UHGV virus genome: UHGV-0195171
Source: a virus
DNA length: 43,103 nucleotides
Direction: 5' to 3' (one strand)
Position 1 is the stretch's first letter. Every line of letters begins with the position of its first letter. The notes beneath the pieces are model-generated. The model did no database searches. It was not told the origin of the DNA and worked only from the letters and a program-made list of their open reading frames with translations. Of the stretch, positions 484 to 35,318 are shown piece by piece. The translations under genes were made by a program, and so were the position numbers.

Positions 484-499
484 CTCTCCCCTCCAATCA

Positions 500-524
500 A
501 TCCCGCATAGTCGGGATTTTTTTA
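500..524 (+). terminator. rho-independent terminator after the repressor gene
   Basis: atcccg-catagt-cgggat hairpin followed by ttttttt. Confidence 0.6.
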
Positions 525-577
525 TTCTTTCTAATCAACAACATAAAATAAATATTCGTAATGCGATTATTTTTATC

Positions 578-606
578 TTGACCTATAATATACGCATAAC
601 TAATAT
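578..606 (+). promoter_or_regulatory. sigma70-type early-left promoter (pL-like)
   Basis: TTGACC (578-583), 17-nt spacer, TAATAT (601-606). A CGAATA-type operator-like half-site (551-561) lies just upstream. Confidence 0.5.
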
Positions 607-607: not shown

Positions 608-1036
608 ACACCCATCAACGACGCACTAACCACGCGGCAGTTGTTCAGAAACAGTTCTGACAGCCCGGAAAGACGGGCACGAATTCTTCGGGTCGCCGAA
701 AGTACGATGGCATGCGGGAAAGACTGCAACCGGCGTATGGCACATGCGTCGAAGCGGTCCGGGGGCTCCTTGGTACATGGCCCAGCGGGTAGCCGGAATG
801 TGCAAGCCAGGTGTCCAGGCACGACAGGCGATTCACCATCGTGGCGGTACGGTGTGACTCCCGGGAAGAGTCCGGGATACAACATGAGAGCGCACTTCAT
901 TTTTATCAGTTATGGCGATGTTGTTAAATCAAAAGGGCGGAGTGCGCTCCCAGTTGTAAAGAATCACGTAGCCAGCGTGGTACCAGAGAAAATTGCTGTA
1001 TGTAGTCTTGGCCCGGGCGCCCCGGGCATTTTTTTA
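608..1036 (+). ncRNA. GC-rich structured leader or candidate noncoding RNA; identity unknown
   Basis: About 430 nt, visibly more GC-rich than its flanks, starting at the pL-like promoter and ending at a strong terminator. Contains several short perfect hairpins (663-678 GCCCG-GAAAGA-CGGGC; 860-876 CCCGG-GAAGAGT-CCGGG). The only long ORF (578-1045) starts with TTG inside the -35 box and has an R/G/S/P-rich composition typical of noncoding GC-rich DNA. Confidence 0.3.
1011..1035 (+). terminator. rho-independent terminator (tL1-like)
   Basis: gcccggg-cgc-cccgggc hairpin followed by attttttt. Confidence 0.6.
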
Positions 1037-1099
1037 ACACAGTGACGGTTTTACCGTTGTGCCTGAGTCCCCGAACGGAGAGGCCAAACCCGCAACGTG

Positions 1100-1345
1100 A
1101 CACCAGGGAAAGACCGGAGGAAGTACAACGCCTGACCAGCGTCAACCTGAGCATGACCAGCTCTGGCACCGGGGAAGACCGGAAAAGGAAAGACCAATGG
1201 GCCTAACCAGCCTGACAGCCGGGAAAGACCGGCACCCTTTAGATGGCAAAAGGCCCGCACAAGGCGGGCCAGTTACCCCGGGCGGCGACCAAACCACCCA
1301 GATTCCGTAGGGGACCAACCCTACGGAGAGGAAAGACCAATGCCG
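1100..1345 (+). repeat. cluster of GGAAAGACC-type motifs in small hairpins within the early-left leader
   Basis: GGGAAAGACC 1106-1115; CCGG-GGAAGA-CCGG 1169-1182; AGGAAAGACCAATG 1186-1199; GCCGG-GAAAGA-CCGGC 1218-1233; GAGAGGAAAGACCAATG 1326-1342. Two further 7-bp-stem hairpins at 1252-1270 and 1305-1326. About 10 GGA triplets fall within 245 nt. Confidence 0.6.
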
Positions 1346-2000: not shown

Positions 2001-4130
2001 ATGACCATATACAACGGCTTATTTGAGCCCAAGAAATCGGCAATCAAAGACTGCGGTGCCGTGCAGCTGGCGATCGCCGTCGAAGCACCGAACAAGAAAG
2101 TCGCTGAAAGCATTATGACCGGAAAACTCTGGGAGTCTTACCCGGCGAACGGAGACAACTATTTCAAACCTAAGCTGTGGGAACACATTGAAGGCCAGCC
2201 ACTGCCGGCAGTCGGCCAGTTCGATGAACATTTCGCCCAGGAAAATACCTTTGATGGTGAAAAATGGGTGGCTAACAGCCAGGATGACGGCGCCACCGAG
2301 TTGCCGGCAGGCGATGAAGTTATCGATCTGATGACGGTATCCCCCAGGGAGCGTTTTGCTGCTGTATTACTCTTCAGCAAATTAGAGATAAACGGCCAGC
2401 TCTATTCGCAGGTTGTAGATTATCTTGATGATCTGGATAACCACAACGAATCCATAGAAGAGGATGACCGTTTTAATTTCAATGTGCTTTGCGCCCTGCA
2501 CAATAACGAACCAGTGAAACATATGCACGTGGAAGGTCTGAACAATCTGATCCATGGCATCTTCTCCCATTTTGAAAACCAGATGCCGGGTAAAGCGGCT
2601 ATTTCTCAATTTGTAAAACGCTGGCTTGAAAATCCCGGTAAACGCGAAGAAATGGTACCAGGCCAAAATTATGCCCCCAGCACTGATAACAACGTTAAAA
2701 TCGCGCCAAAGCGTGGTTATAAACATACCTACGCAACACTGGATCAGGAGATCGCTGTTGCGCTGCTCCCTATCTCTCCCGACGCGCCAGTATTATCAGG
2801 CAACCTTCGCGACGCGGAGAAAATCATTGCAGACGATCGTGAGGATTTTAAACGTTGGTCTGCATCACTGCATGTCACACCGAACATACTCAAATATGAC
2901 CGTGCCAGCATTTTCGGCGTAGTGCAGAACGTTCCGGCGAAAGATACTTACCATTTTCCGGAAAGTCTGCGCCGCCATATTACTTCATGGCTTGAAGCTA
3001 ACGGCCGCTTTGAAGAAGACGAAGGCTCATCACAAAAACAACCGACAGCGGAGCAAAATACCGCCTCAAACGTGGTCAAAAAAGAGGAAGTGCCGCCGCC
3101 GGTTGTAACCGATACCCAGGCCAAACAGGCGCGTGAGACGCTCAACGATATGGGCTATGGCGTATATGCCTCTGGTGAAGGAGCAGAGCCAGAAGAGAAG
3201 TTGAGTGAAAAAGTAAAAACTATCGTTCAGGACGTTGATCAGCTTGTTGAACGAATTAACCGAGAAGAGAACCTGCCGAAAGCTTCCGAAGTCGTCCAGA
3301 GCATTAACGAAATGCAGGAAACAGAACGTGACAATCTGGAACTATGGAAACGAGTTTTCAAAACTGATGAACGGTTTACTAAAGCCTTTACGCAGAACGG
3401 CGGCGGCACCTCGATCAATGGCACGTACCTAACGATGTTAGCAACACGTGAGTTTGGCTTGAAAGGGAGCGGCTGGGGCGTCGATATTCTGGAAGAACGC
3501 TTTGATGATGGCGCACCAATTACACGTACAGTAAAAGGAGCTGACGGTAATAATACATGGGAACTGATCCCTGATGGTAATGGTGGCTTCCTAACTGAAA
3601 AACACCATGTGATAAAAATTAGGCTGTGGTACCTGGTAAACGGTGTTCGTGGTGAAGAATACGCCTACGGATGTACCCCTTACATTTACGGCAGTAAATA
3701 CGGCCCTATCTGCGACGGCGAAGCTACTAAAAAATCACTAACTGACGCCACCAAAAAGGCATTATCCGGCCTCGGATTCAGCGGCGATATATTTATGGGG
3801 CTTTACGACAATCTGGAGTACCGCCAAAAGAACAAGGCCGAATTTGATCTTAAGAACGCCAGCGAAACCGCCGAAGATGCAGCGCGGTTGCGTCAGGAGT
3901 TCGATGACAAACTAACCCGCGTCGCCAATACACTAGCACATGGCGTAACAGTGAACGAAATAAACGGTGTGTTCTCCCCTATCGCACGTGAAATCGATGT
4001 TCACATTAAGGCCGCACAGGCCAACGGCGACAAGCAACATGAACGCTATCTTTCTGGTCGCCTGCGCCGCCTGATTGCCATTAAAGATGGTCGTCTCAAA
4101 GAACTGAATAAAGCCGAGGAGAAAGCATAA
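2001..4130 (+). CDS. Rad52/Sak/Erf-superfamily single-strand annealing protein with a roughly 440-aa N-terminal extension
   Basis: The C-terminal third carries the Rad52-like annealing signature (…YAYGCTPYIYGSKYG…EATKKSLTDATKKALSGLGFSGDIFMGLYDN…). Preceded by GAGGAAAGACCAATG. Located upstream of the gp157-like gene, as in phage recombination modules. Confidence 0.6.
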   Translation: MTIYNGLFEPKKSAIKDCGAVQLAIAVEAPNKKVAESIMTGKLWESYPANGDNYFKPKLWEHIEGQPLPAVGQFDEHFAQENTFDGEKWVANSQDDGATELPAGDEVIDLMTVSPRERFAAVLLFSKLEINGQLYSQVVDYLDDLDNHNESIEEDDRFNFNVLCALHNNEPVKHMHVEGLNNLIHGIFSHFENQMPGKAAISQFVKRWLENPGKREEMVPGQNYAPSTDNNVKIAPKRGYKHTYATLDQEIAVALLPISPDAPVLSGNLRDAEKIIADDREDFKRWSASLHVTPNILKYDRASIFGVVQNVPAKDTYHFPESLRRHITSWLEANGRFEEDEGSSQKQPTAEQNTASNVVKKEEVPPPVVTDTQAKQARETLNDMGYGVYASGEGAEPEEKLSEKVKTIVQDVDQLVERINREENLPKASEVVQSINEMQETERDNLELWKRVFKTDERFTKAFTQNGGGTSINGTYLTMLATREFGLKGSGWGVDILEERFDDGAPITRTVKGADGNNTWELIPDGNGGFLTEKHHVIKIRLWYLVNGVRGEEYAYGCTPYIYGSKYGPICDGEATKKSLTDATKKALSGLGFSGDIFMGLYDNLEYRQKNKAEFDLKNASETAEDAARLRQEFDDKLTRVANTLAHGVTVNEINGVFSPIAREIDVHIKAAQANGDKQHERYLSGRLRRLIAIKDGRLKELNKAEEKA

Positions 4131-5320: not shown

Positions 5321-6349
5321 ATGGGAAGAAAAAGAAAAAACCAGGAGGATAACAAACTTCCTCCCCGCGTTTATTCAAATAAGTACAGTTACTATTACAA
5401 ACCAACCTCAAAAGAATGCATCACAATTGGCCCCGTATCAATGCCCTTGTCTCAGTTATGGGCAAGATATGAGGCATTAATTGACGAACAGGCCAACGTA
5501 ATGACATTCAGTAAATTATGGGGGTTATTTCTTAAGAGTGCCTATTATCTTGAATTGAAACCAAGGACGCAGAAAGATTATCTGCAACACCAGAAAAAGC
5601 TACTTGCTGTATTTGGGAAGATTACGGCAGATAAAATTAAAACTGAAGATATCAGGATGTTTATGGATAGGCGAGGCTTGCAAAGTAAAACGCAGGCAAA
5701 TCATGAAATGAGTAGCATGTCTCGTGTTTTCAGATGGGGTTTTGAGCGGGGTATGGTTAAAGGGAATCCTTGCCAGGGCGTCAGTAAATTTAAAGCTGTC
5801 GCCCGCGGAAGGTACATTACCGACGCGGAATATGAGGCTATCTATAATGAGGCGGATGATGTCGTTCGTACAGCAATGGAAATTGCCTATCTTTGCGCTG
5901 CCCGCCTGGCTGATGTACTCGGCATGCAGTGGCGACAGGTAACGCCGGAAGGAATCTTCATTCAGCAGGGTAAAAACAATGTTAGCCAGATCAAGCAGTG
6001 GACAGACCGGCTTAAACAGGCTTTCGAACTCGCAAAAACATTCTCTAATTCCGGCAATCCAGGAGCATTCGTCCTGATGGGCTCACATGGTAGCGGGTTC
6101 AGTAAAAGAGGATTCAGCCACCGATGGGAGGAGGCAAGGCATAAAGCTTCTGTAAAACTGGGGTACGTTCTCGACTGTACGTTCCACGATCTGAAGGCGA
6201 AAGGTATCTCTGATTACGAAGGAAGCAGCCGGGATAAACAACTGTTCAGCGGACATAAAACAGAAAGCCAGGTTCTGATTTATGATCGTAAAACGAAGGT
6301 GTCACCCACTCTCGACAAGCCGCCAATTGAGACTAAAAATTCTAAGTGA
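5321..6349 (+). CDS. int: tyrosine integrase, lambda Int family
   Basis: 342 aa. Lambda-Int-like N-terminal arm-binding region (LPPRVYSNKYSYYYKP…). Catalytic-domain motifs …AARLADVLGMQWRQV…, …HDLKAKG…, and SGHKTESQVLIYDRK with the catalytic Tyr. It is transcribed toward the attP core. Confidence 0.85.
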   Translation: MGRKRKNQEDNKLPPRVYSNKYSYYYKPTSKECITIGPVSMPLSQLWARYEALIDEQANVMTFSKLWGLFLKSAYYLELKPRTQKDYLQHQKKLLAVFGKITADKIKTEDIRMFMDRRGLQSKTQANHEMSSMSRVFRWGFERGMVKGNPCQGVSKFKAVARGRYITDAEYEAIYNEADDVVRTAMEIAYLCAARLADVLGMQWRQVTPEGIFIQQGKNNVSQIKQWTDRLKQAFELAKTFSNSGNPGAFVLMGSHGSGFSKRGFSHRWEEARHKASVKLGYVLDCTFHDLKAKGISDYEGSSRDKQLFSGHKTESQVLIYDRKTKVSPTLDKPPIETKNSK

Positions 6350-23716: not shown

Positions 23717-24114
23717 CTCACGATTGAAAATAATCTGGCGTCACAGCCAGGCTGATAATTGCGGATAATAGCGTCCTGCTGGTAACTGAGCATTTTTGCA
23801 ACGCGGGCAGACAGGTTATCGGCGCAGATGCATTCCACTCGATAATTTTCGGATAACGCTATTTCGGTAAACCGCAGTGCAGCACGGAAAATATGAACAG
23901 GGAACTGTTCTGCATCTGGTACGGTATGTAACCAGAGTCTGACCCGGCCCGGGGCTAACTGAATGGCGCCACCAGCGGCAAGTGTTTTTTCCCCGTATTC
24001 CATCGCAAACGATGGGAAAGATACCAGCGACGCAACAGCCTCCGGCGATAATGAGTCCGGGAATATTTCATTAAGGTGGAACTCCTCAAGATGGACGATT
24101 ACAGGCTCAGTCAT
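23713..24114 (-). CDS. hypothetical virion protein (133 aa)
   Basis: ORF in the structural module with start/stop overlap. Confidence 0.5.
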   Translation of the reverse strand: MTEPVIVHLEEFHLNEIFPDSLSPEAVASLVSFPSFAMEYGEKTLAAGGAIQLAPGRVRLWLHTVPDAEQFPVHIFRAALRFTEIALSENYRVECICADNLSARVAKMLSYQQDAIIRNYQPGCDARLFSIVR

Positions 24115-26383
24115 CTTCCATTTCTCCTACTGGATCGATGCTGACAATGGTCATTGGCTGCGGCAGGTCCTGCACGATACGGATGCTTCCATTCTCATTA
24201 AACTCGCCAGGCCACGGAACGGTAACCACGCCATTAAACAGCGGAGGCGCCTCATCCATATTGTCTGAGTAATCTCGCGCGCGAAGCTTATCCAGATATT
24301 TGCCGCCCTCATCGCCGAATTTACCGCCAAGCGTATCGATAAATCGCAGTCGTGCTTTGGCAAAGCGTTTAATCCCCCCTTCCAGAGGCAAGGTGATAAT
24401 TTCAGCCGCATTATTGATTCCGACGTGAACAACAGATGATGGCCAGTCCAGCGTGATGCTGCCTCCGCTTACCGTTCGCGATGCGTGCGTGGCGCCGTCG
24501 GTCACGACTGCCACCGTCTGCCCTTCCAGAAACCCCAGTCCGGAAATGACCGTTGTCGCAACGCCGTTGTATGTCGCCATACAATCCAGCACTCGCGCCC
24601 ATTCCTGGGTGATAAACGCGCTGTCATATTCCTGCAGCATATATTCCAGATAGCGCACCGTTGCGCCGTTTATGGTTCGTCTAACAACCATCCACAGCTC
24701 ATCGCGTCCGCCATCGATATCCGGAATGACCTTGATACTTTCCACCGCACCGCCGGTAGCATGCTCATGCCAGCCGGTGATGTTTTGCTCTGCGTCATAG
24801 GTCAGTCCCAGCAGTTTGCCTTCTTCCAGCAACACCCAAAGGATCCGGTTGGGCTCCTGCTGATACGCCAGAGCAATTATTTCAGACGTAAAAAGATGGG
24901 GGGCCAGAATGCAGGAATTGGTTGCTGAAAACGAGTCACTGCCCGAATCATAGGCGGCAATCATCACCTTGCGCCCAGCACGCTGCACAAACGCAACTCG
25001 ATCAAAAAGGCGCTCTGCCTGCACTTCGTTGCTGCCGATCGTACTGTTCAGCTCAACCTTTGTATTACCCGCGCCAAAAACGGAAGTCAGGCTTTGCTCG
25101 CCATAGGAGAATTCATACCCGGCAGTCCCGATAAATATTTTCCCTGCGGAGGCGACCAGCCATTGCATGGTGTCCTGAGTATCATCAATGCGATCATTAA
25201 TCGAATCGTCGCTTTCTGCCTCATAGCCATTTGTCATTGGGCTGAAGTTCTGCAGATCACCAGCGACGCTGGACCATATTTTTTGCCGGCCAGCGAAGAC
25301 CAGGCGTCCCCGGAAAAATGCCGCAAACTGGGGGTAGCGGAGAACATCAGACCAGTCACCGAAAGCGTATTTATACGTTTTCCCAACTGTGTTTCTGACG
25401 CTGGGTGGTAGTTCAGTGACGATCTTACCGGTTGCGGATGTGGCACTATTGACCGCTGTTATCTCAATGATCCCCCAGCCACCGCCTGAATATCGCCAGA
25501 GCGACGCATCACCACCGCTTCCATCCCTGTGGGCGCCAGCTGTCCATGTAGGCTGCGTATTACCGGTCTTGGTGCCGTCCATGTCTTCGTAATATTTCCC
25601 ATCTGAACGGCAGAAAACACCGGCGGAGAAAGTTTCTGATGTGCCAGCAGCCCAGGCGGGTATGTAACCGCTATGACCGGTATCATCATCCACTGCATCA
25701 GTGCTGGCTTCGATGTAAAAAAGACACCCTACATGCGCAGTCTGAAAAATATCTGTGTTGGCAGTGATGTTGCAGAGGCTTGTAGTGGTTGGGGTGCCGT
25801 CAGGCAAATCGTTTCCATCCTCAGACCAGATCCTGAACTGGTCGGTGTAAACGACGCTGGATTTGTCAGAATTAATATCAGCGAATGGCCCCCCCGAAAA
25901 ACCGGCCTCTGCCAGGCTCCAGTTGGTATTAGTGTTTCGGGTCAGCTTATGAACCGGGTAATTTCCATTTGTGCAGGTTATGTAAATCACATCTGCTGAC
26001 TGCTGCAGAGACAGGCCAAATTTCCCGTTACGGGTCAGATCATCAGCTCCCCACGGCGTTTCAATTTCAAGAATGTTGTTATCGCCATCCAGCAGTTGCG
26101 CATGGTTGTACCAGAACCGGATGTATCCAGGGCCAAACTCCAGGATAAAAGCCTCCGTCGTACTAAACTGAAATGATGCTAACCAGACTCGGTCGCTGCT
26201 GTTTTTTACTGAACCGGCGTATTGCGTCCCGCCGCGGCGACGCGCGGGCCCCTGCGGTAGCGGTATGAAGTTTTTCATGTACTTGACGGCGCTGGCCCAC
26301 TTATCAAAATCTACTTGCCCATACATCACAGGCGAAAGTATTCCAGCATTAAAGCTACGCTTTATAGGACGGATTTTTGCCAT
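24107..26383 (-). CDS. large virion structural protein (758 aa; putative tail hub/adaptor)
   Basis: Long ORF between the head genes and the ejection proteins. No coiled-coil tape-measure character. Confidence 0.5.
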   Translation of the reverse strand: MAKIRPIKRSFNAGILSPVMYGQVDFDKWASAVKYMKNFIPLPQGPARRRGGTQYAGSVKNSSDRVWLASFQFSTTEAFILEFGPGYIRFWYNHAQLLDGDNNILEIETPWGADDLTRNGKFGLSLQQSADVIYITCTNGNYPVHKLTRNTNTNWSLAEAGFSGGPFADINSDKSSVVYTDQFRIWSEDGNDLPDGTPTTTSLCNITANTDIFQTAHVGCLFYIEASTDAVDDDTGHSGYIPAWAAGTSETFSAGVFCRSDGKYYEDMDGTKTGNTQPTWTAGAHRDGSGGDASLWRYSGGGWGIIEITAVNSATSATGKIVTELPPSVRNTVGKTYKYAFGDWSDVLRYPQFAAFFRGRLVFAGRQKIWSSVAGDLQNFSPMTNGYEAESDDSINDRIDDTQDTMQWLVASAGKIFIGTAGYEFSYGEQSLTSVFGAGNTKVELNSTIGSNEVQAERLFDRVAFVQRAGRKVMIAAYDSGSDSFSATNSCILAPHLFTSEIIALAYQQEPNRILWVLLEEGKLLGLTYDAEQNITGWHEHATGGAVESIKVIPDIDGGRDELWMVVRRTINGATVRYLEYMLQEYDSAFITQEWARVLDCMATYNGVATTVISGLGFLEGQTVAVVTDGATHASRTVSGGSITLDWPSSVVHVGINNAAEIITLPLEGGIKRFAKARLRFIDTLGGKFGDEGGKYLDKLRARDYSDNMDEAPPLFNGVVTVPWPGEFNENGSIRIVQDLPQPMTIVSIDPVGEMEDD

Positions 26384-26991
26384 TACAAACGAGCCTCCAT
26401 CCAGGTTGAAGGTGGGAATTTCTCACTGGGCTTTTCTATAGCGTTTACGCGAATGGCTCCTGCGATGATCATCTGGAACTGCTGCAACAGCGATTCAACC
26501 AGCGTATCCTTGCCGGTCACCGCTTTACAGGAGCGAACTGCCAGCATACAAGCCAGCGCATCAACAAAGGTGGAGTCGAATTGTGATGCATCGGTTACTC
26601 TGGCCCGATAGCGCAAGCTAAGCGGTGGCTGTAGATCCGTCAGCAATTCCCGCCCCTCGATGCGATATTCAGCCGTGACCAGGCGGGGATCGTATTCAGA
26701 GAAATCACGCCCGTAATATCTGTCCCCCACCGATACCAGTACCATTAAATCAACGGGCAGCTGGTAAGCGTATTGATAGTCGATGACAGGCGTTTTGTTT
26801 AATGGGGTAAGCTGGGTGCTGCGGGCGCAAAAATTCCAGGCATATTCGCGCTGTAGTTTTTCGAGGAGGGGGTTGTAAATCAGGTTCATCACGCGCGTGT
26901 TTTTATCCTGCTCATCACGATCCATGAGATGGTCGGATCCCAGGAAGGAAACCAGCGCCAGATTCATGATATCTGTCTGACCGGTCATCAT
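26383..26991 (-). CDS. hypothetical head-tail joining / virion protein (202 aa)
   Basis: ORF in the structural module. Confidence 0.5.
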   Translation of the reverse strand: MMTGQTDIMNLALVSFLGSDHLMDRDEQDKNTRVMNLIYNPLLEKLQREYAWNFCARSTQLTPLNKTPVIDYQYAYQLPVDLMVLVSVGDRYYGRDFSEYDPRLVTAEYRIEGRELLTDLQPPLSLRYRARVTDASQFDSTFVDALACMLAVRSCKAVTGKDTLVESLLQQFQMIIAGAIRVNAIEKPSEKFPPSTWMEARL

Positions 26992-27000
26992 AATACCTCA

Positions 27001-27026
27001 TAAAAAAGCAGGGGCCGCAGCCCCTG
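27001..27026 (-). terminator. rho-independent terminator after the capsid-associated gene
   Basis: The minus strand reads caggggc-tgcg-gcccctg followed by ctttttt. Confidence 0.5.
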
Positions 27027-27049
27027 AAAACGCACTCACTCCACCCTAA

Positions 27050-27523
27050 TTAAGCAATGCTGAGATTAAGCGCGGCGAACTCAACGTTATTAGCGTAAGA
27101 GCGCCATGTCTGTGCATCTTTCGTTATGAAGGCATCTAATGCGCCAGCGGTGAACGGGCCTGTAGCGACCGTATATTGCAGGCTTAAAAAGCGTTTATAA
27201 TTGGCCGAAGGCAGCGCCACCACGACAACCGGTTTACCTGCGACGAGACTGCCCAGCGCTTTCGCTGGAGTAGAAAAAATAACGGTTGGTGTATCGCTTT
27301 TGTCCTCATTGGCATAAGCGCGTAACTCAATCGCAAGCGTAGCCGCCCCTGCGGCCGTGAATGTCACCGACGGAGTCACAACCAGAAAAGTCGGCTCGCC
27401 AGCGCCAGCATCGATCACAGTGTTGTAATCAAAGGCTGGGTTAAAATCGATGATGTTCGTGCTGGCCGCTGAGGCGGTGATCGCCTGAGAGTCAGAAAAT
27501 TCAAGCTGGGCATCAACAAACAT
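27050..27523 (-). CDS. capsid-associated protein (157 aa; possible decoration/Ig-like)
   Basis: Ala/Thr/Val-rich beta-type composition. Lies immediately downstream of the major capsid gene. Confidence 0.45.
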   Translation of the reverse strand: MFVDAQLEFSDSQAITASAASTNIIDFNPAFDYNTVIDAGAGEPTFLVVTPSVTFTAAGAATLAIELRAYANEDKSDTPTVIFSTPAKALGSLVAGKPVVVVALPSANYKRFLSLQYTVATGPFTAGALDAFITKDAQTWRSYANNVEFAALNLSIA

Positions 27524-27561
27524 GGTTATCTCCTGAAAAAGTAAACCGGAAAATCGCCCCG

Positions 27562-28557
27562 TTAAGAGGCGACGACCTGAGCTTCCCCGATTTTTAACTG
27601 GTCAACCCGGCGCACCGGAACTTCGCCAAAGAACATCACACGACGTCCGCCAGCCATTTCCATTGTCAGGGTTGAGTTTTTCACGGCATCAACCAGCTGC
27701 AGACGCAGCATCGCGCGCAGTGTGCGGTTCATGTAATAAGCCGGGCTTACACCAACCAGTGACTGGATACGCTCTTCCGCGATAGCCATCAGTTTGATGA
27801 GGTTTGCACCCGCATTAGCGTTAGTACGCAGAGCGGTAACATCAATGTTGGCGATGCGTACGACGTAGCGCCAGTCGTGCAGCGCAATACCGAGATCCCA
27901 GGTATAGAGGTCCATCAGCGCCCGGAAGCGGTTGCCATCATCATCAAAGGCGTCGCCCTCGCCCAAATCACGATGAGTCAGACCGGCTTTTGAACCTTTC
28001 GGGAAAATTCCGTAGACCTTGTCAGGCGCCCATCCGATGAGATAAATCGAGGTGAGATTCGCACCAGTACCGCCGGCGTCGATGATGTTGTCGGCATTAG
28101 GCGCAGACAAATCGCTGAAGCGTGGAGCAATGCCCAGGAATGCCTCCGGTTGCCCAACAAGCGTGCCGTTAAGCATCTGGAATTGAGCCTTCTGGTTCAT
28201 CGCTTCCATGAACGGTTTAGACTGGTTGAAGCGAAAACCTGCCGTATTACCATTCAGCGCAGCAACCCGAACATCAACCTGAGAGCGGGCTTCAAGAAGA
28301 CCGGTAGTCTCATCTACCTGCGCGGTAGTTGCCTTGCTTTCCGGAATACCTTTGTTCAGCTTGCGCCAGTACACAGCAGGTAAACCAGTACGGGTTGTGA
28401 TGCGCGTTCCGGTCGGCAGGTTGCCTTCATAAAACGGGCAATCCCAGAGCATTTCGTTGTCCTGATCCAGAACCTCCGCGACATTCGCAGAAGTGCCATC
28501 AGGATCAAGCAATTTCGCTGCGTCCCAGAGAGTCGGTAAGCCGGTAAGTGTTGGCAT
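27562..28557 (-). CDS. major capsid protein
   Basis: 331-aa ORF following the scaffold gene. Size and position match HK97-fold capsid proteins of epsilon15-type phages. Confidence 0.65.
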   Translation of the reverse strand: MPTLTGLPTLWDAAKLLDPDGTSANVAEVLDQDNEMLWDCPFYEGNLPTGTRITTRTGLPAVYWRKLNKGIPESKATTAQVDETTGLLEARSQVDVRVAALNGNTAGFRFNQSKPFMEAMNQKAQFQMLNGTLVGQPEAFLGIAPRFSDLSAPNADNIIDAGGTGANLTSIYLIGWAPDKVYGIFPKGSKAGLTHRDLGEGDAFDDDGNRFRALMDLYTWDLGIALHDWRYVVRIANIDVTALRTNANAGANLIKLMAIAEERIQSLVGVSPAYYMNRTLRAMLRLQLVDAVKNSTLTMEMAGGRRVMFFGEVPVRRVDQLKIGEAQVVAS

Positions 28558-28567
28558 TTAAAACTCC

Positions 28568-29326
28568 TTATTGCATGTTCGGCCACATGCGGTGGGCAAT
28601 GTCTTTTTCTGCTGCATTCCCCGTCGCTGCGGCTGTAACTGTTTTGTCTTCACCTAGCGCTTTACCGATCGCCAGGACTGCATTCACAAGGTCTGGGTCA
28701 TTGAGTAATCCCGCAGTGTTGAATTTTTCAATCACAGCATCGGGGAAAAATCGCTGCACGGCGTTCTGGAGGATCGCTGTATTTGCCTCAACTTCACTTC
28801 CCCAGGACTTGATAACCTTTTCCCGGTTAGCAGCATTTTGATTAGCAATATTTTCCTGGGCACTTTTTTGTTGTTCGGCTGCATATTCGTTGAATTTATT
28901 AATTACGGTTTCAGCCTGCTTTTTATTGAGCCCGCTTTCATGCATCCAGCTCAAGGCCGTATTTAAAAATGTCCCATCGCTGCCTTCCGGTGGCTTAATA
29001 CCGTAGTCTTCAACTTTTTCCGGGCGCCCCAACTTCTCGTAAAGTTCCTGCCAGCCTTTTTCGTCGCTATCTTCTGGGAGTTTTTCGAGGAATGGCGCGG
29101 TGGTCTGCGACTGCTGTTGGGCGGCTTGCTGCTGTTGCTGCTGTCCCTCTCCCCCCTGCTGTTGCTGAGCGCCTGGATTTAAAAGGTTTTGTTGCTGGGC
29201 CGCATCGCTAATCTGCTGCTGGGCGGCAGAATCAACACCTGCGGCAGCGGCAGCGCCACCACCTTCCCCGCCTTCAATGGTTGCATTCATCAGACGGCGC
29301 AGGATTAAGCGTTCAAACAGATTCAT
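28568..29326 (-). CDS. scaffolding protein (Gln-rich)
   Basis: 252 aa, acidic and helical, with a poly-Q tract (QQQGGEGQQQQQQAAQQQ). Lies between the portal and capsid genes. Confidence 0.55.
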   Translation of the reverse strand: MNLFERLILRRLMNATIEGGEGGGAAAAAGVDSAAQQQISDAAQQQNLLNPGAQQQQGGEGQQQQQQAAQQQSQTTAPFLEKLPEDSDEKGWQELYEKLGRPEKVEDYGIKPPEGSDGTFLNTALSWMHESGLNKKQAETVINKFNEYAAEQQKSAQENIANQNAANREKVIKSWGSEVEANTAILQNAVQRFFPDAVIEKFNTAGLLNDPDLVNAVLAIGKALGEDKTVTAAATGNAAEKDIAHRMWPNMQ

Positions 29327-29639
29327 TGTTGTCGTCCTCGTTAAGTTCGTTCATCTCTTCGGCGATCATTGCGGCAATATCAGATTGCGACAGGCCGAGA
29401 TAGTGGTTTATGTGCAGGAAAACTTCCCGGCGGCCCTCCGAAACAAATACGGCGTATGGGTCGGTTTGCTGGGTCGTTGGGGAAATAGCGACACTGGAAG
29501 AATTGACGTGACAGAGTTTTGCCAATAGTCGGATGACAACTTTCTGTTCCGGCGTCATGTTCCCCGGGGTGCCGAAGACTGACTGGAAAGCCCGCGCACG
29601 GTTCAGCGTGAGCCACAGACTTTTTATACGGTTCATCAT
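29313..29639 (-). CDS. hypothetical head-assembly protein (108 aa)
   Basis: ORF between the portal and scaffold genes. Confidence 0.45.
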   Translation of the reverse strand: MMNRIKSLWLTLNRARAFQSVFGTPGNMTPEQKVVIRLLAKLCHVNSSSVAISPTTQQTDPYAVFVSEGRREVFLHINHYLGLSQSDIAAMIAEEMNELNEDDNNESV

Positions 29640-31303
29640 TATCCCTGTAACGCTGGCGACGGCGCAGGTGTCTGCGCAATCTGATTGGCCTGGGCGAAAT
29701 CTTTAGCTGCGGTTGCAGCCACCGGCGCTGCGGCAAGCAGCTGCTGTAGTTGCAGTTGCTGCTGATCTGCAGCATCCTGCGCAGCCATTTCATCTTCGGT
29801 TTTAACCACCTGTAGCGGTGCACCACTGGCTTTAGCAATAAAGCGCAATGCGGCATCGCCATTCAGGGTGCGGGCGATATTCTGATCAAACTGTCCGATA
29901 GTGCCGGCAGCATTAATGACGTTCATAATCCCGCTCGCTTCTTCACTCATCTGCAGGCGCACCAGCGGGCTGGTGTATTCGATATCGTATTCGCCACCAA
30001 TTTCTTTCAGTTGTTCGGGCGGTTCGGGCAGCAGACCGTTCTGATAAGCAATGTCAATTTCCCGCAGGATCATAGTCCCCAGGAACTCGGCCTGAATACG
30101 CCCGGCGGTCGGCGCCAGCAACTGACCTTTTTCCTGCGCACGCAGCATCGCTTCTGTTGCAGTCATTTGCGGGTTATCAACGAGGATCTGGAAGAGCGTG
30201 ATAAAAAAACCGTCGTTGATGGTCTGTCGTTTCTGCTCTGCCAGCGTCATCGCCACGCTAAAATCAGTAGCAGTATTCAGAGGTAAGGCAAGTGGTTTAC
30301 CGTCCCGGTTCATTCCGCCGAAGTTCAGCGCGCCAGGCATCATTTTGAACGGTTGCAGAATGCCGTCTTCCGGTAACAGCATCGGCGGGCGCACGGCCAT
30401 TTGCGCACCCTCGATAATGGCGCGGTTGATTTCGTTCAGCAGCTTAATATCCGGTAGAACAACCATTGCAGGTGAGCGTCCATATACCTCACCCGGCGCG
30501 GTGTAATATCGGCTGATTGCATAGGGCTGTGACCAGTAGCCGCCCTCCTGCACAATCTTGCTTCCCTCCATGCAAATATGCACAGACCGGAATGGCATGC
30601 CCTCTTTGTCCTGCCGTGACATGTCACGTTTATCATTAGGTTCGACGCGGTGCAGGAAGTTAAATTGCTTTGACGGATCGTTCTTCGCGGTCGTTCTTAC
30701 CTGTTGAGGGAGATTATCTTCACCAAATTGCTGAATAGCCTGACGGGCAGTCATGCAATATTTACGGTGAACAACATCGATCATCCCCTGGAAATTCTCA
30801 GTGAAATAAATTTCTCGCAGGTGATAAGTGCAATAACGCGGGCCTTTTCCGATCACGTTATCAACGAACGTGCAGCCGGTCCCAAATGCACCCGAGGAAA
30901 TATAATGCTCATGAGATTGCGAGGCGAAATTAGCCCACGGTGCATAACGGAGGCGGAAGAGAATATCGCGAACCTCCTGGAAATAACGCTGCACCTCTTC
31001 ATCATCAGAAAATCGCTCATTGCTGAGAGTGTGCCATTTCTGTGTTCTCGGGGTGATAACTGATTCGATGGCCGCTCCGAATTTTTGCAACGCCAGCGCG
31101 CCGGTAGCATCTATCGCTTTCTCGGTACGTTTACCGCCCTTCTGCCTGGTCCCTTTGAACTCGGCACTGCGCGGTAGAATGCGCTCTGCTATTTCCTGCC
31201 AGTGCTGCTCGAACACGGAACGATCGGTTTCCATGCTTTTTTGCTCACGCAGTATCCGGCCGATACGCTCTGATTCATTTTCTTGTGTTTTTTGGTCTGA
31301 CAT
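29639..31303 (-). CDS. portal protein
   Basis: 554-aa ORF immediately after the large terminase, coupled by an ATGA overlap. Confidence 0.7.
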   Translation of the reverse strand: MSDQKTQENESERIGRILREQKSMETDRSVFEQHWQEIAERILPRSAEFKGTRQKGGKRTEKAIDATGALALQKFGAAIESVITPRTQKWHTLSNERFSDDEEVQRYFQEVRDILFRLRYAPWANFASQSHEHYISSGAFGTGCTFVDNVIGKGPRYCTYHLREIYFTENFQGMIDVVHRKYCMTARQAIQQFGEDNLPQQVRTTAKNDPSKQFNFLHRVEPNDKRDMSRQDKEGMPFRSVHICMEGSKIVQEGGYWSQPYAISRYYTAPGEVYGRSPAMVVLPDIKLLNEINRAIIEGAQMAVRPPMLLPEDGILQPFKMMPGALNFGGMNRDGKPLALPLNTATDFSVAMTLAEQKRQTINDGFFITLFQILVDNPQMTATEAMLRAQEKGQLLAPTAGRIQAEFLGTMILREIDIAYQNGLLPEPPEQLKEIGGEYDIEYTSPLVRLQMSEEASGIMNVINAAGTIGQFDQNIARTLNGDAALRFIAKASGAPLQVVKTEDEMAAQDAADQQQLQLQQLLAAAPVAATAAKDFAQANQIAQTPAPSPALQG

Positions 31304-32697
31304 CAGTTGTCCCCATACAGATCCCAGTCGGAATCAGCGTAAAACTGCTGGCTATGTCCAGGAGGGTTATAAGGATCGTAATTGGACTGGGCAAATTGCT
31401 GGGTTGTGTGGCGGTTGCCGCTACGCAAAGACTTACTGCCTACTGCACCATAACGGAATGAGTCTGCGCCGTGAGACGTCCAGTTATGCAGAGGGGTTGG
31501 CTTATACATTTTTCGAGTGTCGTCCCACTCTTTTTGATACTGTCCCAGAGCCTCCAGGCCTTTTTCGCATTTGGTTTTGTCGAACCAACAGGATCGCAGC
31601 ATCATACGCACCTCGCTGATACCATCATCAACCGATGTGGCCGGCAGTACCTTGCAGCGTATCCCCAGCTTGCCCAGCGTCTCTTCGCGTGATGCTCCGG
31701 TGCTCAGTTCTCGGGCGCGTACATCGTGCGGGAAGAAATGACGCTCAGCATAGGTATACGGTTTCTCGCGCAATATTTTTACGTAGTGCTCCAGGCCAAC
31801 ACCGGACGATTCGTAATAATCAATGACGCGTACCTCTTTGCCGATAAACTGATAAAACCAGATAGCCGTTGCGTCGCCAATGCCCAGGTCCCATGACGTA
31901 TAAACCTCATACTGGGGATCCCACGGCACATTCCCTATTTGCCCTGCCTTCTCCAGACCAACCAAAATCGATGAGTAATAGGCGCCGGGTATTGCAGCGT
32001 TCCAGTCGCACATGTATTCCTGATTGAACAGAGCTTGCCCCTCATCCTCCCCGCGCTCTGCCTGCATCTCGCGCAACTCCTGAGCGAGTGTTTCCGGTGG
32101 GATGTGCAGCGTAATATCGGCGCTTAAATGATCACAAAACCAGTTGTCAGGATCCTTTAACCCACCCTGGAACATTTTGTAGAAGTGGTTTTTCCCGCGT
32201 GGTGTGGAGACAAAAAAAGCCCAGCCGCCGTTATCAGCCAGTATCGGTCGCAAAAATGCCCACGCAGAGGGGTTACTTAGTGCCCATTCAGAGAAAACAA
32301 TCCCGACATGACCGGAACCAATGAGCGCGCCATAGTTGTCGCTGCCGACTGCCTGCCACGTGGAACCGTTGATGAACTCGATCATCATCTCGTTATCGAG
32401 CGTTTTTCTTCTCAACTCATGAGGAAAAGCCTCATCGATACGCAGACGCCCCGTCCTCGGATTAACCGCCTTCCAGATAGCCTTTCTTACCTGGTTCGCC
32501 TGCGGCAGGCAGTGGGCATAGTTCCCGACACGCTCGAATGCCTTACATGCTGTCATGTGCAGGCTGAAATCATCTTTCCCGTAACGGCGAGGCCAGCAAA
32601 GCGCCGCTCTTTTTTTTCCACCCTGAATTTCAGCCCATGCCCTTCGCTGATGTGGGCGGGGAGTCCAGTTGTTCGCCGGGAGAATAATTTCTGCCAT
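31303..32697 (-). CDS. terminase large subunit
   Basis: 464 aa. N-terminal ATPase region with a P-loop-like WPRRYGKD. C-terminal nuclease-like region with acidic residues. Confidence 0.75.
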   Translation of the reverse strand: MAEIILPANNWTPRPHQRRAWAEIQGGKKRAALCWPRRYGKDDFSLHMTACKAFERVGNYAHCLPQANQVRKAIWKAVNPRTGRLRIDEAFPHELRRKTLDNEMMIEFINGSTWQAVGSDNYGALIGSGHVGIVFSEWALSNPSAWAFLRPILADNGGWAFFVSTPRGKNHFYKMFQGGLKDPDNWFCDHLSADITLHIPPETLAQELREMQAERGEDEGQALFNQEYMCDWNAAIPGAYYSSILVGLEKAGQIGNVPWDPQYEVYTSWDLGIGDATAIWFYQFIGKEVRVIDYYESSGVGLEHYVKILREKPYTYAERHFFPHDVRARELSTGASREETLGKLGIRCKVLPATSVDDGISEVRMMLRSCWFDKTKCEKGLEALGQYQKEWDDTRKMYKPTPLHNWTSHGADSFRYGAVGSKSLRSGNRHTTQQFAQSNYDPYNPPGHSQQFYADSDWDLYGDN

Positions 32698-32781
32698 TTA
32701 TTCACTTCCTATTCACTCTACTGGATAAAATGCCGGGGTTTTTCTCATTCAATCGATTAACCAGGCAATTGAAACGCCTGG

Positions 32782-33234
32782 CTATTCTTTTTCGTTGAAG
32801 TGCTTTACCTTGACGGTCATTTCCAGATCACCCTCAACAGATTTTTTTTCCACCAGCCCAAGCTCGCGAGCAATGATGTTGGCGTTAAGCAGATCAGCGG
32901 CAGCGCCAGAAAATTTCTGCTCATAGATGAGGCTTTCCACTCGCGTAGTGATCGGGAGTAAATCTTTTTTCTTCGCGTATGCTTCCCACGTCTTCCGGTC
33001 TATATCGAGGAACAGGAACAAGCCGCTAAGCGTCATAGCACGCATTTTCGGGAGTCTGGCTTTAGTGATTGTCCCCTGAAAACTAAATGCTTTGGTTTCC
33101 CACAGAGGGTGTTTTTCCACCCAGTCGAAATATTCACAGCAGGCATCCCACAGCTTTTCAGGATCAGAGAACTTTGGGTTTCTCCCGTGCTTGCTGCGTG
33201 CCAGCCAGAATTTATTGCCCTTTGGCGCTGCCAT
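32782..33234 (-). CDS. terminase small subunit
   Basis: 150 aa. N-terminal [40 protein letters not shown] resembles P22 gp3-type small terminases. Confidence 0.65.
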
Positions 33235-33240
33235 ATCTCA

Positions 33241-33501
33241 TTACTCCGTGTTACGACGGGTGTATTTCCGCTTCTGCTGAATTTCTTCGGGATCGCTTTT
33301 TGGCTCTTCAATTTTCTCATCGCGTGGTTTTTCTTCCGGGTAAAGCGACAGGAATGCATCCACGACAGATCTGACAATGTCTTTAGCTGCCTGCGTTCCG
33401 TCCGAACCGCCGGGCCAGCCGAAATTTTTAGCCAGAACAGCGCCAGCACTTTTAACGATCTCCACCTGAATACTGGTGTCTAACTCATGCAGTTTTTTCA
33501 C
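33241..33501 (-). CDS. hypothetical protein (86 aa)
   Basis: ORF upstream of the terminase genes. Confidence 0.45.
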   Translation of the reverse strand: MKKLHELDTSIQVEIVKSAGAVLAKNFGWPGGSDGTQAAKDIVRSVVDAFLSLYPEEKPRDEKIEEPKSDPEEIQQKRKYTRRNTE

Positions 33502-33718
33502 TGTTGTCTTCCTCTTCAGGGATAAGGCCCATAGCGGTCATCAGGATTTTCAGTTCTGGTGCGTCACCGTTTTTTACTGCGCGTAAAATCACACGGTCAG
33601 AATTGCCGTTCGCGTAAGCAGCTGCGCCATACATGGCTGTGTTCAAGTGCGCTTTAAGAAAGCGGGCTTTCATCAGCTCCAAGAGTTTTTCGGCTTCTTC
33701 GTCATTAAGGGTGATCAT
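33485..33718 (-). CDS. hypothetical protein (77 aa)
   Basis: ORF with an AAGGAG SD. Confidence 0.5.
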   Translation of the reverse strand: MITLNDEEAEKLLELMKARFLKAHLNTAMYGAAAYANGNSDRVILRAVKNGDAPELKILMTAMGLIPEEEDNSEKTA

Positions 33719-33786
33719 TGGTTTCTCCTTTCATGCTGCTTGCAGTGAGGCCACCAACTGAAATGGCCTCTTGATCTCCGGATTTG

Positions 33787-34071
33787 TTAGCAGTCTGCAT
33801 CAGGGCGGGAGACTGCACGGCATGCCCACATACAGGCTTCCTGCATTTTGGTGCGCGCGATAGCCATGCAGCGCAAAGCTTCTGCTCTCTCGGTTTCGGC
33901 CTGACTACCACGCTCGACAACTTCAGCCGTTGCAACCTCTCGCTCTGTATCGAGCAGACTGCAAAAATGCCGGCTGACACCTTTGAGACGATTCATACGC
34001 TCAATGTCACCCGTGGTTAATGTGCGGTAGCCCTTTACGGTGCTGCCGTCCTGCGGTTTAGCTTCGCTCAT
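33787..34071 (-). CDS. hypothetical protein (94 aa)
   Basis: ORF with an AGAGGA SD. Preferred over the overlapping alternative 33705-33980 on composition and RBS. Confidence 0.5.
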   Translation of the reverse strand: MSEAKPQDGSTVKGYRTLTTGDIERMNRLKGVSRHFCSLLDTEREVATAEVVERGSQAETERAEALRCMAIARTKMQEACMWACRAVSRPDADC

Positions 34072-34424
34072 TGGTTTTCCTCTTTCGGTGGTTGTCGTGC
34101 ACTCCGCAGCAGCAGAGTGATCATGTAGTTTTTGCTGTGGCGCCGGCAGGAGTCGAAAAAGCTTTCGCGTTTGCTCATAGGGATTTTGTTTCCGGAAAAC
34201 TTCTCCGCCAGCTCTGCCGTTGGGAAATAAATGCGACGTGAATTTCGTCCTGTTTCGTTGTGGGCGCGGAATATAAGATTGTCTTTAAGCAGACTGTCCA
34301 AAATAAAAAATACAGTGCTGCGTGACATACCGAGCGAATACATCACTTCGGCAGAAGTTACCCCTTCCGAACAGGTGCGAATAAGCTCAAGCACCGCAAT
34401 TTTTTTTCTGGTTAAACCCGACAT
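34068..34424 (-). CDS. winged-helix DNA-binding protein (candidate late-gene regulator)
   Basis: 118 aa. The segment …IAVLELIRTCSEGVTSAEVMYSLGMSRSTVFFILDSLLKDNLI… looks like a MarR/PadR-type wHTH. Located just upstream of the packaging genes. Confidence 0.4.
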   Translation of the reverse strand: MSGLTRKKIAVLELIRTCSEGVTSAEVMYSLGMSRSTVFFILDSLLKDNLIFRAHNETGRNSRRIYFPTAELAEKFSGNKIPMSKRESFFDSCRRHSKNYMITLLLRSARQPPKEENQ

Positions 34425-34714
34425 AGGCGCAATACCTTCACTTCAGTCGTCACCTGATCGAGCAACTCCAGTTCGGTACCGTATTTGCCCTCCCATGTCT
34501 TTTGTCCGGCATGAATTGCCACACCAAAACCGCCAGTGCGGTGATGTGCAGGGCAAAGAGGCAAGGTTCTTTTGTGATTTGCGCGCTGGCCGGCGCCCTG
34601 ACCGGTTCGGATGTGGTGAATTTCTGCCGGAGTGGAACCGAAACCGAGATTGCGACAGACAATGCAACCCAATTCGGCTACGTCTGACAGCCAGTCTTTA
34701 TCGTCTTTAGTCAT
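34412..34714 (-). CDS. Ref-like HNH endonuclease (phage P1 recombination-enhancement-function family)
   Basis: 100 aa from the ATG at 34714 (MTKDDKDW…). …CIVCRNLGFGSTPAEIHHIRTGQGAGQRANHKRTLPLCPAHHRTGGFGVAIHAG… carries CxxC plus HH/HH metal-binding motifs. Confidence 0.55.
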   Translation of the reverse strand: MTKDDKDWLSDVAELGCIVCRNLGFGSTPAEIHHIRTGQGAGQRANHKRTLPLCPAHHRTGGFGVAIHAGQKTWEGKYGTELELLDQVTTEVKVLRLCRV

Positions 34715-34724
34715 GGTGGTGACC

Positions 34725-35318
34725 TCAGGCCGCATAACTGAAAAGCTGAGAGGCTGCGTTTTCTGCTGCCTGCTGCGTTGGGAAGGTGCGGAACAGAATG
34801 AAGTTCCAGAGAACGTCGAGGACTGACTTATAAAGCTGGGAGAATTCAAGGTCGTCCATTTTGGCGAACGATATGGACTTTGGCTCTTTGCGGATGGTGC
34901 CATCAGGCATCTGATATTCGTTATAAAAACCAGCTTCGATGGTTACCCAGGCACGAAACGCCTCGAATGATTTAACAGCGCTGATATTCCCGGCGCGTTT
35001 TTCCGCCTCATCGCGAAGATATTGATCCGCCAGTTCCTGCAATGTGTCGCCGTGCCCGGCATAGTGGGCCACCAGCTGCACGTAACCACGAACCAGTTTT
35101 TTATCGGCTGGCGATATTGCACCGCCAGAAGGTTGCCAGTAATCAAATCCCAGATTCAGGAGGGCAAAAAATTTGCGGTGAAATGCCGGGTTTCTTGCCT
35201 GCTTAAAATCAGAGTAAAGGACTGCCCCCAGGCGAATTTTCTTCACAAACTCGCGGGCGTCTGGAGATGCAGGGATTAATACATCGCCTGCTGATTTGAT
35301 AAATGAATACTGCGCCAT
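34725..35318 (-). CDS. DUF1367-like phage protein (197 aa)
   Basis: ORF in the nin-like region. Family assignment is from memory of conserved prophage proteins. Confidence 0.4.
   Translation of the reverse strand: MAQYSFIKSAGDVLIPASPDAREFVKKIRLGAVLYSDFKQARNPAFHRKFFALLNLGFDYWQPSGGAISPADKKLVRGYVQLVAHYAGHGDTLQELADQYLRDEAEKRAGNISAVKSFEAFRAWVTIEAGFYNEYQMPDGTIRKEPKSISFAKMDDLEFSQLYKSVLDVLWNFILFRTFPTQQAAENAASQLFSYAA

Follow-up and report, generated by a model that had tools for sequence, protein, structure and literature searches.

The question raised by this locus is what is made from the DNA between a promoter of the pL type and the first strong terminator downstream of it in the virus genome UHGV-0195171, of which the whole stretch analysed here, 43,103 nt in length, is referred to as the window. 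A preliminary description, made from the letters alone, had pointed to a highly structured element at 608-1036, rich in guanine plus cytosine (GC), and had offered for it a small RNA (sRNA), a put-like antitermination RNA or other cis regulator, or an Arg-rich N-like protein; the promoter, the two perfect hairpins (663-678 and 860-876), and the terminator (1011-1035) on which it rested are located as it claimed. Our analysis showed that 608-1036 forms the initial, untranslated portion of the early-left (pL-type) transcript and is built of three separable RNA modules, designated A, B, and C, and that module A belongs to a family that is absent from Rfam 15 and from the searchable literature and that moves between unrelated enterobacterial phages. 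The modular build of the region and the wide distribution of its mobile core module both go beyond the preliminary description. The explanation as a whole, in which a three-module untranslated early-left RNA would be cut into pieces acting in trans, is given a probability of roughly 0.5.

The element contains open reading frames (ORFs) of 155 aa, starting with TTG (578-1045), of 112 aa, starting with the ATG at 707, and of 105 aa on the minus strand (583-900), the last of which carries an annotation in phage BUCT709. For a coding test, the window was aligned with the Escherichia coli prophage L129, which is ~75% identical over the region. The substitutions between the two at the three codon positions of the TTG frame numbered 34/34/45, with no third-position bias, the insertions and deletions (indels) were 10, 2, 1, 1, 2, 24, 9, and 3 nt long, and the homologous stretch of L129 has stops in all three frames. 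Furthermore, no Pfam family was found in ORF 578-1045, in its ATG-707 version, or in the minus-strand ORF. At the level of sequence comparison, this shows that 608-1036 is non-coding and that the TTG ORF is translated noise, as the preliminary description had suspected, and when its proposed check of codon against helix conservation was carried out by alignment, it was the helices, not the codons, that were found to be conserved. The N-like protein that it had considered from the ATG at 707 is rejected, because the frame is hit by indels and stops in relatives and is without a Pfam match. Annotations as "hypothetical protein" lie over module A or its neighbours in BUCT709 (L001, 4014-4304, minus strand), mEp390_036 (L004, 3066-3308), and Tyrion gp54 (L006, 2665-2826), and these are probably artefacts of ORF calling in GC-rich structured RNA.

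Module A was analysed with a covariance model (CM) of 155 model positions, R1, and with an alignment, A1, of 30 diverse copies; copies were collected from IMG/VR with an invariant 15-mer. The model has one match in the 43-kb window (148 bits, E = 3e-44) and no second even at E up to 10. The 30-copy alignment supports the helices P1, P2, P4, and P5 as well as a pseudoknot of the P4 loop with a downstream strand: 97.7% of the helix cells are paired, compared with 88.1% in column shuffles, none of 500 of which was as high, and with 53% or less in slid controls, and 10 pairs were changed on both sides. For example, pair 8-20 is GC in 17 copies and AU in 13, and pair 34-94 is CG in 21 and UA in nine. 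The pseudoknot occurs in three compensating states, namely CACC:GGUG in most copies, AACC:GGUU in two separate lineages, and GGUC:GACC in Jedunavirus, with 98.8% of its cells paired. In a gap-free alignment of 42 sequences, P4 and the pseudoknot together were 98.5% paired, compared with 79.1% in shuffles and 56.5% or less in slid controls, and three of the four pseudoknot pairs were changed on both sides. This predicted H-type pseudoknot is the most strongly supported point of the structure. G-U pairs are found on the plus strand only, and therefore the structure is one of RNA and not of DNA. The alignment contains ~59 invariant positions, and the 19-nt strand GGUAGCCGGAAUGUGCAAG is also invariant, apart from a single G-to-U change, in copies collected with a different 5' bait. 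P5 is missing from the Jedunavirus copies and replaced in some others and is therefore peripheral to the conserved core. With compensated helices above both shuffled and slid controls, as expected of conserved structured RNAs in general, module A is shown by the alignments to be a conserved RNA with five predicted helices, an H-type pseudoknot, and a 19-nt invariant strand. A second pseudoknot, between the P1 loop GCACAU and AUGUGC, is plausible.

The Rfam scan proposed in the preliminary description yielded nothing in the window at the gathering threshold of Rfam 15, and at E up to 10 the window gave chance-level matches only, apart from a sub-threshold match to RprA (39.2 bits) described below. 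In 12 related loci, the only matches were to transfer RNA (tRNA), C4, isrK, and int-alpA, all elsewhere in the loci. No paper with the sequences of modules A, B, or C was found in the searchable literature, and nothing on the element was found in the literature on ymfH, on anti-defence RNA, and on the P1 transcriptome. The Pas sRNAs (Zhu, Shabalina and Storz 2026 preprint) come from the late region and are unrelated, and the anti-sRNAs of enterohemorrhagic E. coli are late-region morons (Tree et al. 2014).

By BLAST, only ~726-891 of the window is common to many otherwise unrelated phages, in most of which it is unannotated DNA. The family ranges over lambdoid prophages, P1/P7, Uetakevirus, and Jedunavirus, with at least 144 phage records and, by the invariant 15-mer, at least 120 IMG/VR contigs. 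Matches were present in 1452 of 5426 complete E. coli genomes (about a quarter), with a query that spanned modules A, B, and C but whose sampled rows match the A part; 477 places are on plasmids, of ~77-98 kb among the rows sampled, and the one plasmid examined is P1-like. Most of the matches have no annotation beneath them, and the remainder have only "hypothetical protein" or a ribosome-binding site (RBS). Among species-representative genomes, 22 have a true match, of which 21 are Enterobacterales (20 Enterobacteriaceae and Candidatus Erwinia dacicola) and the other is a 1.7-kb contig labelled Bacillota. The model R1 finds clear copies in every related locus, and no module A in the searched region of HK022, in rrnH, or in the K-12 prophages e14 and CPS-53, of which e14 has only modules B, D, and C.

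Module A is found in four contexts. It follows a cI-type repressor gene and a pL-like promoter in the window, in mEp390, where it lies behind the annotated prophage repressor, and in two E. coli prophages, where it lies behind repressor-like helix-turn-helix (HTH)/XRE genes. It lies further into the same operon in e14-like prophages, and it heads free-standing arrays of non-coding RNA (ncRNA) in Uetakevirus and Jedunavirus, on the strand opposite the structural genes. Module A is followed in these arrays by hairpins of the B type, by tRNA-Arg or tRNA-like scaffolds, and by a unit of the C type; in Geezett and SPN1S, a promoter-like site lies just 5' of module A, and the terminator or terminator-like hairpin at the end of the array faces a convergent gene. 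Finally, it stands alone in the messenger RNA (mRNA) leader of ban in P1 and P7. In P7 (L214, 1583-1870), module A (129.8 bits) occupies a 288-nt unannotated gap, 16 nt past trnI, the gene for tRNA-Ile(CAU), and 94 nt before ban; the same trnI-ban stretch is matched at 95% identity in P1 records, and likewise in a P1-like plasmid (L128, 2908-3187). A short upstream ORF overlaps the start of ban in this gap.

Several neighbours of module A in its relatives were also observed. A tRNA-shaped scaffold recurs in the arrays downstream of it (L130, 3160-3290, and L012, L021, L085, L100, and L118), with an acceptor-like stem GUGGUGA/CACCAC-A, hairpins GCGCAGGCUGAUGCGC and GCCGGAGAUCAGCACCGGC, complementary loops CUGAU/AUCAG, and a variable insert in place of the anticodon arm; the scaffold has no Rfam match. 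The insert in L100 matches 16S ribosomal RNA (rRNA) near position 260 at 26 of 29 nt (E = 2e-4). In L089, module A is followed by a hairpin and then by a boxA, in which TTTGCTCTTTAACAATCTGGAT equals the boxA of the rrnH spacer at 21 of 22 positions, which suggests that the early-left operon of L089 may use Nus-dependent antitermination of the rrn type; a looser boxA-like version, TAGCTCTTTAATAAT, is present in L029 and L081. A prophage of Shiga toxin-producing E. coli with module A (L130) carries in its rightward region (627-815, minus strand) a C4 antisense RNA (80 bits) and an adjacent isrK (61 bits), a second and known RNA-based control module in one phage.

The other two modules are more familiar. 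Module B is a conserved long hairpin, with a fold z-score of -4.03 that none of 200 shuffles equalled. A regular-expression scan of related loci returned 27 distinct sequences, several of which are the two strands of one site, since the module is nearly palindromic, and the stems show compensating changes (GAGCGCAC/GUGCGCUC compared with AAGCGCAC/GUGCGCUU and with AAGCGCGC/GCGCGCUU). Module C has, in its predicted fold, the anatomy of an Hfq-type sRNA, with a 5' hairpin, a single-stranded seed, and a Rho-independent terminator with a U-tail, and has 16-17 nt in common with the 3' third of RprA; the sRNA suggested in the preliminary description thus finds its counterpart at the 3' end of the element. 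The 3' domain of RprA, UUGCUGUGUGUAGUCUUU followed by a terminator, is matched at 993-1009 of the window with a difference at one position. The likeness is limited to the last ~50 nt of RprA, where it is close, and L129 shares the terminator too, its UUUGCUGUGUUUAGUCUUUGCCCAGUCCGCACGAUGGGCC corresponding to AUUGCUGUGUGUAGUCUUUGCCCAUCUCCCACGAUGGGCU of E. coli RprA. The motif UGCUGUGUGUAGUCUU followed by a terminator-like hairpin was present in most of 30 distinct sequences, although three or four of the 30 appear to match by chance, and this combination ends many related arrays. In E. coli K-12, ymfH (b1142) of e14 (L161, 5070-5460, minus strand) overlies a tRNA-like scaffold and a C-type unit, UGCUGUGUGUAGUCUUGGCGGUACCAG...CUGGUACCGCCCUUUUU. 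It is probably not a protein gene, and, judged from its sequence, K-12 may make an undescribed RprA-like prophage sRNA from e14.

The features of the locus are listed in Table 1. The pL-like promoter site starts ~50 nt past the terminator of the HTH_3 repressor-like gene, and the element that follows is thus in a position equivalent to that of nutL/N, as the preliminary description had stated. From this promoter, the predicted transcript should start at ~612-614.

Table 1. Positions of the features in and around the element, in the numbering of the window
Feature	Position	Strand	Basis or remark
Repressor-like HTH gene, 154 aa	19-483	+	Pfam HTH_3, E = 4e-6; listed ORF
Intrinsic terminator of the repressor-like gene	499-526	+	Stem 499-518, then T-run
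pL-like sigma-70 promoter, TTGACC-17-TAATAT	578-606	+	9/12 matches
Leader with small hairpins 645-660, 663-678 (GCCCG-GAAAGA-CGGGC), and 687-700 and second GGAAAGAC motif 717-724	612-727	+	
Module A, ~155-nt conserved RNA	728-880	+	CM and covariation
Module A, P1	731-739/743-751	+	
Module A, P2 base	758-761/786-789	+	Distal part variable
Module A, invariant strand GGUAGCCGGAAUGUGCAAG, 19 nt	788-806	+	
Module A, P3	~807-825	+	Variable
Module A, P4, loop UUCACCA	828-831/839-842	+	
Module A, pseudoknot CACC:GGUG	834-837 with 851-854	+	
Module A, P5	860-864/872-876	+	Second hairpin of the preliminary description
Module B, long hairpin ACAAC-AUGA-GAGCGCACU ... AGUGCGCUC-CCA-GUUGU	878-958	+	Variable interior
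Module C, sRNA-like: 5' hairpin 963-981, single strand UUGCUGUAUGUAGUCUU 993-1009, terminator 1011-1027 and U7	959-1036	+	
T-poor structured untranslated stretch	1037-1340	+	Beyond the element first described

Homology to BUCT708 and BUCT709 sets in at ~597-600 by BLAST, which is a mosaic junction at the promoter. These two phages (OM816834/OM816835) are the closest phage records, 98-99% identical over 597-1450 of the window, and are labelled as Stenotrophomonas phages; all other relatives of this region are from Enterobacterales, and the Klebsiella phage BUCT711 from the same study series has module A. The host label deserves a check. The leader (fold z = -1.69 compared with shuffles) is kept in L129 on both sides of an insertion of two overlapping opposite-strand ORFs of 125 and 72 aa (3336-3891), located between its first hairpin and the remainder, and therefore it tolerates the insertion of a moron. 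A 24-nt unit of the leader, CTGACAGCCCGGAAAGACGGGCAC, is found again at 1212-1235. The hairpin at 860-876, read straight from the sequence, is CCCGG-GAAGAGT-CCGGG, and the terminator has a stem (1011-1027) with seven G-C pairs, followed by T7. The GC content is 0.58-0.61 across 601-900, compared with 0.33-0.41 across 401-700, and 608-1040 (433 nt) folds with a z-score of -2.30, with three of 100 shuffles equally good. The GC-rich structured block is therefore real, but it does not end at the terminator as had been described: it runs to ~1340, and the GC content remains at 0.58-0.62 to ~1400. The early-left genes follow from 1395 onward, with an integrase-like ORF at 5321-6349, and no promoter-like site was found on the plus strand in 1037-1394.

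We propose that, when the repressor is lost, RNA polymerase (RNAP) would make the 608-1036 RNA ahead of any early-left protein gene. Most transcripts would end at the strong terminator, which would be the 3' end of module C, and the product of ~420 nt would be cut into stable pieces acting in trans on the host. Module C would act through base pairing, like the 3' domain of RprA, and module A would bind a conserved host macromolecule as an RNA of the decoy or sponge type, possibly with a link to the translation and tRNA machinery or to defence. Only the read-through fraction of polymerases would reach the early-left genes, and thus the terminator would also attenuate them. A processed early RNA acting in trans is favoured, with modest confidence, over an antiterminator acting in cis, and a trans role is preferred for module A because arrays with it at their head lack a protein gene that read-through could reach and because it also occurs by itself in an mRNA leader. 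Module A often travels with rare-codon tRNAs and with tRNA-shaped scaffolds that have a variable cargo. More tentatively, and with less than an even chance of being right, module A could be a new class of functional RNA, which either is catalytic or acts as a decoy for, or inhibitor of, some conserved factor of enterobacteria, for instance a defence nuclease or part of the machinery of translation or RNA processing. Such an RNA would be deployed at the start of infection by P1/P7, by Shiga toxin (Stx) and other lambdoid phages, and by epsilon15-like and Jedunavirus phages.

Several points weigh against this proposal. The ends and the stability of the transcripts are inferred. The folding energy of module A alone is ordinary (z = +0.28), and therefore the support for it comes from covariation. 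The second pseudoknot shows no compensating change, and three sequences have an uncompensated U-to-C change; among the IMG/VR variants at three of its positions, C110U gives a G-U pair, U108C is uncompensated, and none occurs at G109. The match of module C to RprA (RF00034) is partial and below threshold, with 39.2 bits (E = 0.005; 37.4 bits in L129) compared with a gathering score of 70. When paired with 16S, 23S, and 5S rRNA, the invariant strand gave a worse duplex energy than shuffled sequences did. The distance between the predicted start and module A is often no more than ~10 nt, as it is for putL, which suits a role in cis as well, and the strong terminator before the early-left operon, with no promoter-like site in between, means that some read-through device is needed.

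Certain other candidates for module A were tried and dropped. Pairing with or mimicry of rRNA was rejected, as a short BLAST search against rrnH returned, within module A, 13-14-nt matches at chance level only. Likenesses to RNase P RNA, to signal recognition particle RNA, and to Y-RNA are confined to the variable part of P2 or to a few bases, and Rfam gave no match. A count of terminators between module A and the next ORF gave 42 of 121, which is a lower bound, since the detector needs perfect stems and spurious ORFs occur, and this number was not used to decide between the possibilities.

Among the alternatives, the one that survives best, unlikely as we consider it, is that module A is a processive antitermination or anti-Rho RNA acting in cis, in the style of HK022 put or of the rrn boxA, which would fold as the transcript emerges and modify RNAP so that it crosses the untranslated, hairpin-rich leader, the terminator at 1011-1035, and later terminators. 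Its location fits: module A has a putL-like position after a repressor-controlled promoter in the window, mEp390, L012, L033/L118, and Geezett, and untranslated arrays usually begin with it, in the way that boxA comes first in rrn operons. Furthermore, the strong terminator and ~800 nt of untranslated RNA precede the early-left genes, and neither an N-like ORF nor an internal promoter-like site was found; the window offers no other way past the terminator, 560-1400 being without a boxA within three mismatches. However, module A is present as a single copy, with none at the rightward operon, and some of the arrays that it heads simply stop at a terminator facing a convergent gene and offer no protein gene to be reached by read-through, which weakens the put-like cis role. 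An antiterminator would also be redundant where a boxA-like sequence comes straight after module A, as in L089 and, more loosely, in L029 and L081. There is no sequence or structural likeness to put, and membership in the put family fails for a ~155-nt single-copy pseudoknotted RNA that is absent from the searched HK022 region.

It is also conceivable, though improbable, that module A is a self-cleaving ribozyme or processing element that detaches an array, or the mRNA that follows, from the RNA before it. Ribozymes of the small self-cleaving kind are frequent in prophages and in tRNA-rich regions, where their roles are unknown. Module A is invariably located where two units of a polycistronic RNA meet, such as tRNA-Ile/A/ban in P1 and mRNA/A/array in e14-like prophages, and its fold is compact and pseudoknotted, with a large number of unpaired nucleotides that do not vary. 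In contrast, no Rfam ribozyme family was matched even at E up to 10, the ~59 invariant positions are far above the number in small self-cleaving classes, and the sequence suggests no cleavage site.

Past the terminator, positions 1037-1340 have an AT skew of up to 0.58, and 1181-1330 fold with a z-score of -4.06. The stretch contains hairpins of the form (Y)UGACA with a GAAAGA loop (1100-1118, 1168-1182, and 1212-1235), a hairpin with a GACCAA loop (1303-1327), and the repeat families D1-D5, and it is found only in this phage lineage. L129 keeps the GAAAGA and GACCAA loops on quite different stems (CCGUAGGG-GACCAA-CCCUACGG compared with UCACAAGU-GACCAAA-CUUGUGA). In addition, GGAAAGACC occurs 10 times, compared with 0.33 expected, always in the direction of transcription. 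Within the non-coding leader, its core lies in the loops of hairpins at 667, 717, 1107, and 1222, and six to eight of the copies are start contexts of the form GAGGAAAGACC(A)ATG (1187, 1330, 1991, 5084, and, on the minus strand, 22394, 39641, and 42272), used by at least five real genes and two short ORFs. A sponge for CsrA with GGA hairpins was considered and rejected, as the GGA count is not above composition and only the longer GGAAAGACC is enriched, mostly in RBS contexts.

The hairpin with (Y)UGACA and a GAAAGA or GAAGAG loop could be a nut-like site bound by an RNA-binding protein of the phage, which would serve as an antiterminator or would regulate translation, but this seems doubtful. 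The loops of lambda boxB, GAAGA or GAAAA, are resembled by those of these hairpins. The unit forms P5 of module A and has further copies at 657-680, 1093-1117, 1156-1180, and 1206-1235, a 25-nt repeat family has five copies, and the enriched GGAAAGACC core lies in the RBS of several phage genes. However, there is no conserved protein candidate, as the ATG of an Arg-rich 42-aa ORF (1243-1371) and that of the ORF at 1340 are missing from L129. P5 is absent or replaced in divergent copies of module A and is outside the conserved core, the extra copies are confined to this phage lineage, and 560-1400 contain no boxA within three mismatches.

Still less probable, to the point of being very unlikely, is a riboswitch aptamer for a metabolite or signalling nucleotide that would control the early operon. 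The position in a 5' leader, the pseudoknotted fold, and the long invariant unpaired strands are in its favour, but there is no conserved expression platform, module A being followed by module B, a boxA-like sequence, the ban leader, or other modules; it often precedes ncRNAs only, and no Rfam aptamer was matched. A protein-coding region, whether the TTG ORF, an N-like protein from the ATG at 707, or the minus-strand ORF, deserves hardly any credence despite the open frames of 155, 112, and 105 aa and the annotations in BUCT709, mEp390, and Tyrion, because the frames are disrupted in relatives without third-position bias or a Pfam match, the helices are kept while variable hairpins shift in length by non-multiples of three, and most records have the element in unannotated gaps.

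The remainder of the region is familiar in kind, as it comprises hairpins, an RBS-like repeat, and an sRNA formed at a promoter-proximal terminator, and the interest of the locus lies in module A. If module A is what it seems to be, a strictly constrained structured RNA has been overlooked in textbook phages, including P1/P7 and Stx-converting phages, and in prophages of about a quarter of complete E. coli genomes. The 19 invariant unpaired nucleotides, together with the pseudoknot and its three compensating states, suggest that module A has a particular molecular partner or chemistry, and the presumed early expression and the company of tRNAs and tRNA-like elements point to RNA-based host takeover or counter-defence. 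The locus also provides a testable case of an N-less lambdoid phage that faces a strong terminator ahead of its entire early-left operon. From a practical standpoint, several "hypothetical protein" annotations on these elements, including ymfH in e14 of E. coli K-12, are probably wrong.

Compared with known systems, module A shares with put of HK022 that it is a phage RNA just past a repressor-controlled early promoter, with no visible N gene and with terminators downstream to cross. put is ~70 nt long with two stem-loops and is present in two copies, putL and putR, at PL and PR; it binds the zinc-binding domain of the RNAP beta' subunit and suppresses intrinsic and Rho-dependent termination without protein factors (PMC9378689). 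In contrast, module A has ~155 nt, five helices, and a pseudoknot, is single in the 43-kb window, and is also found in free-standing ncRNA arrays and in P1. In HK022 24000-40751, which contains the immunity and early genes, there was neither a match to the covariance model nor the invariant 15-mer within three mismatches. Size, copy number, and absence from this region rule out that module A is HK022 put.

The likeness to nutL/N of lambda lies in the map position after a cI-type gene and pL and in the purine-rich GAAAGA and GAAGAG hairpin loops, which recall boxB. However, there is no conserved N-like ORF before the terminator, the loops of the boxB-like hairpins at 663-678 and 860-876 have 6-7 nt, and the P5 hairpin is dispensable in divergent family members. 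Module A also resembles the tRNA and ncRNA "moron" clusters of phages and the large phage-associated ncRNAs GOLLD and ROOL, which are likewise structured RNAs carried by phages, frequently have tRNA genes as neighbours, and move from one phage type to another. GOLLD and ROOL are several times as long and are found in other bacterial phyla, whereas module A is restricted to phages of Enterobacterales and has no Rfam match.

Unlike RprA, module C lacks the 5' two-thirds, including the rpoS-pairing region, and is phage-borne, repressor-controlled, and located within a longer transcript; like RprA, it has UUGCUGU(G/A)UGUAGUCUU directly before a G+C-rich terminator and the same overall sRNA layout. 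StxS is an sRNA that results from early termination of the late transcript of Stx phage (PMC7547250). It depends on the constitutive late promoter PR' and on control by Q, whereas here the promoter is an early-left one with no antiterminator known. However, StxS, like the RNA proposed here, is a short regulatory RNA that owes its 3' end to a promoter-proximal terminator in a phage operon, with the genes downstream being expressed by read-through of that terminator.

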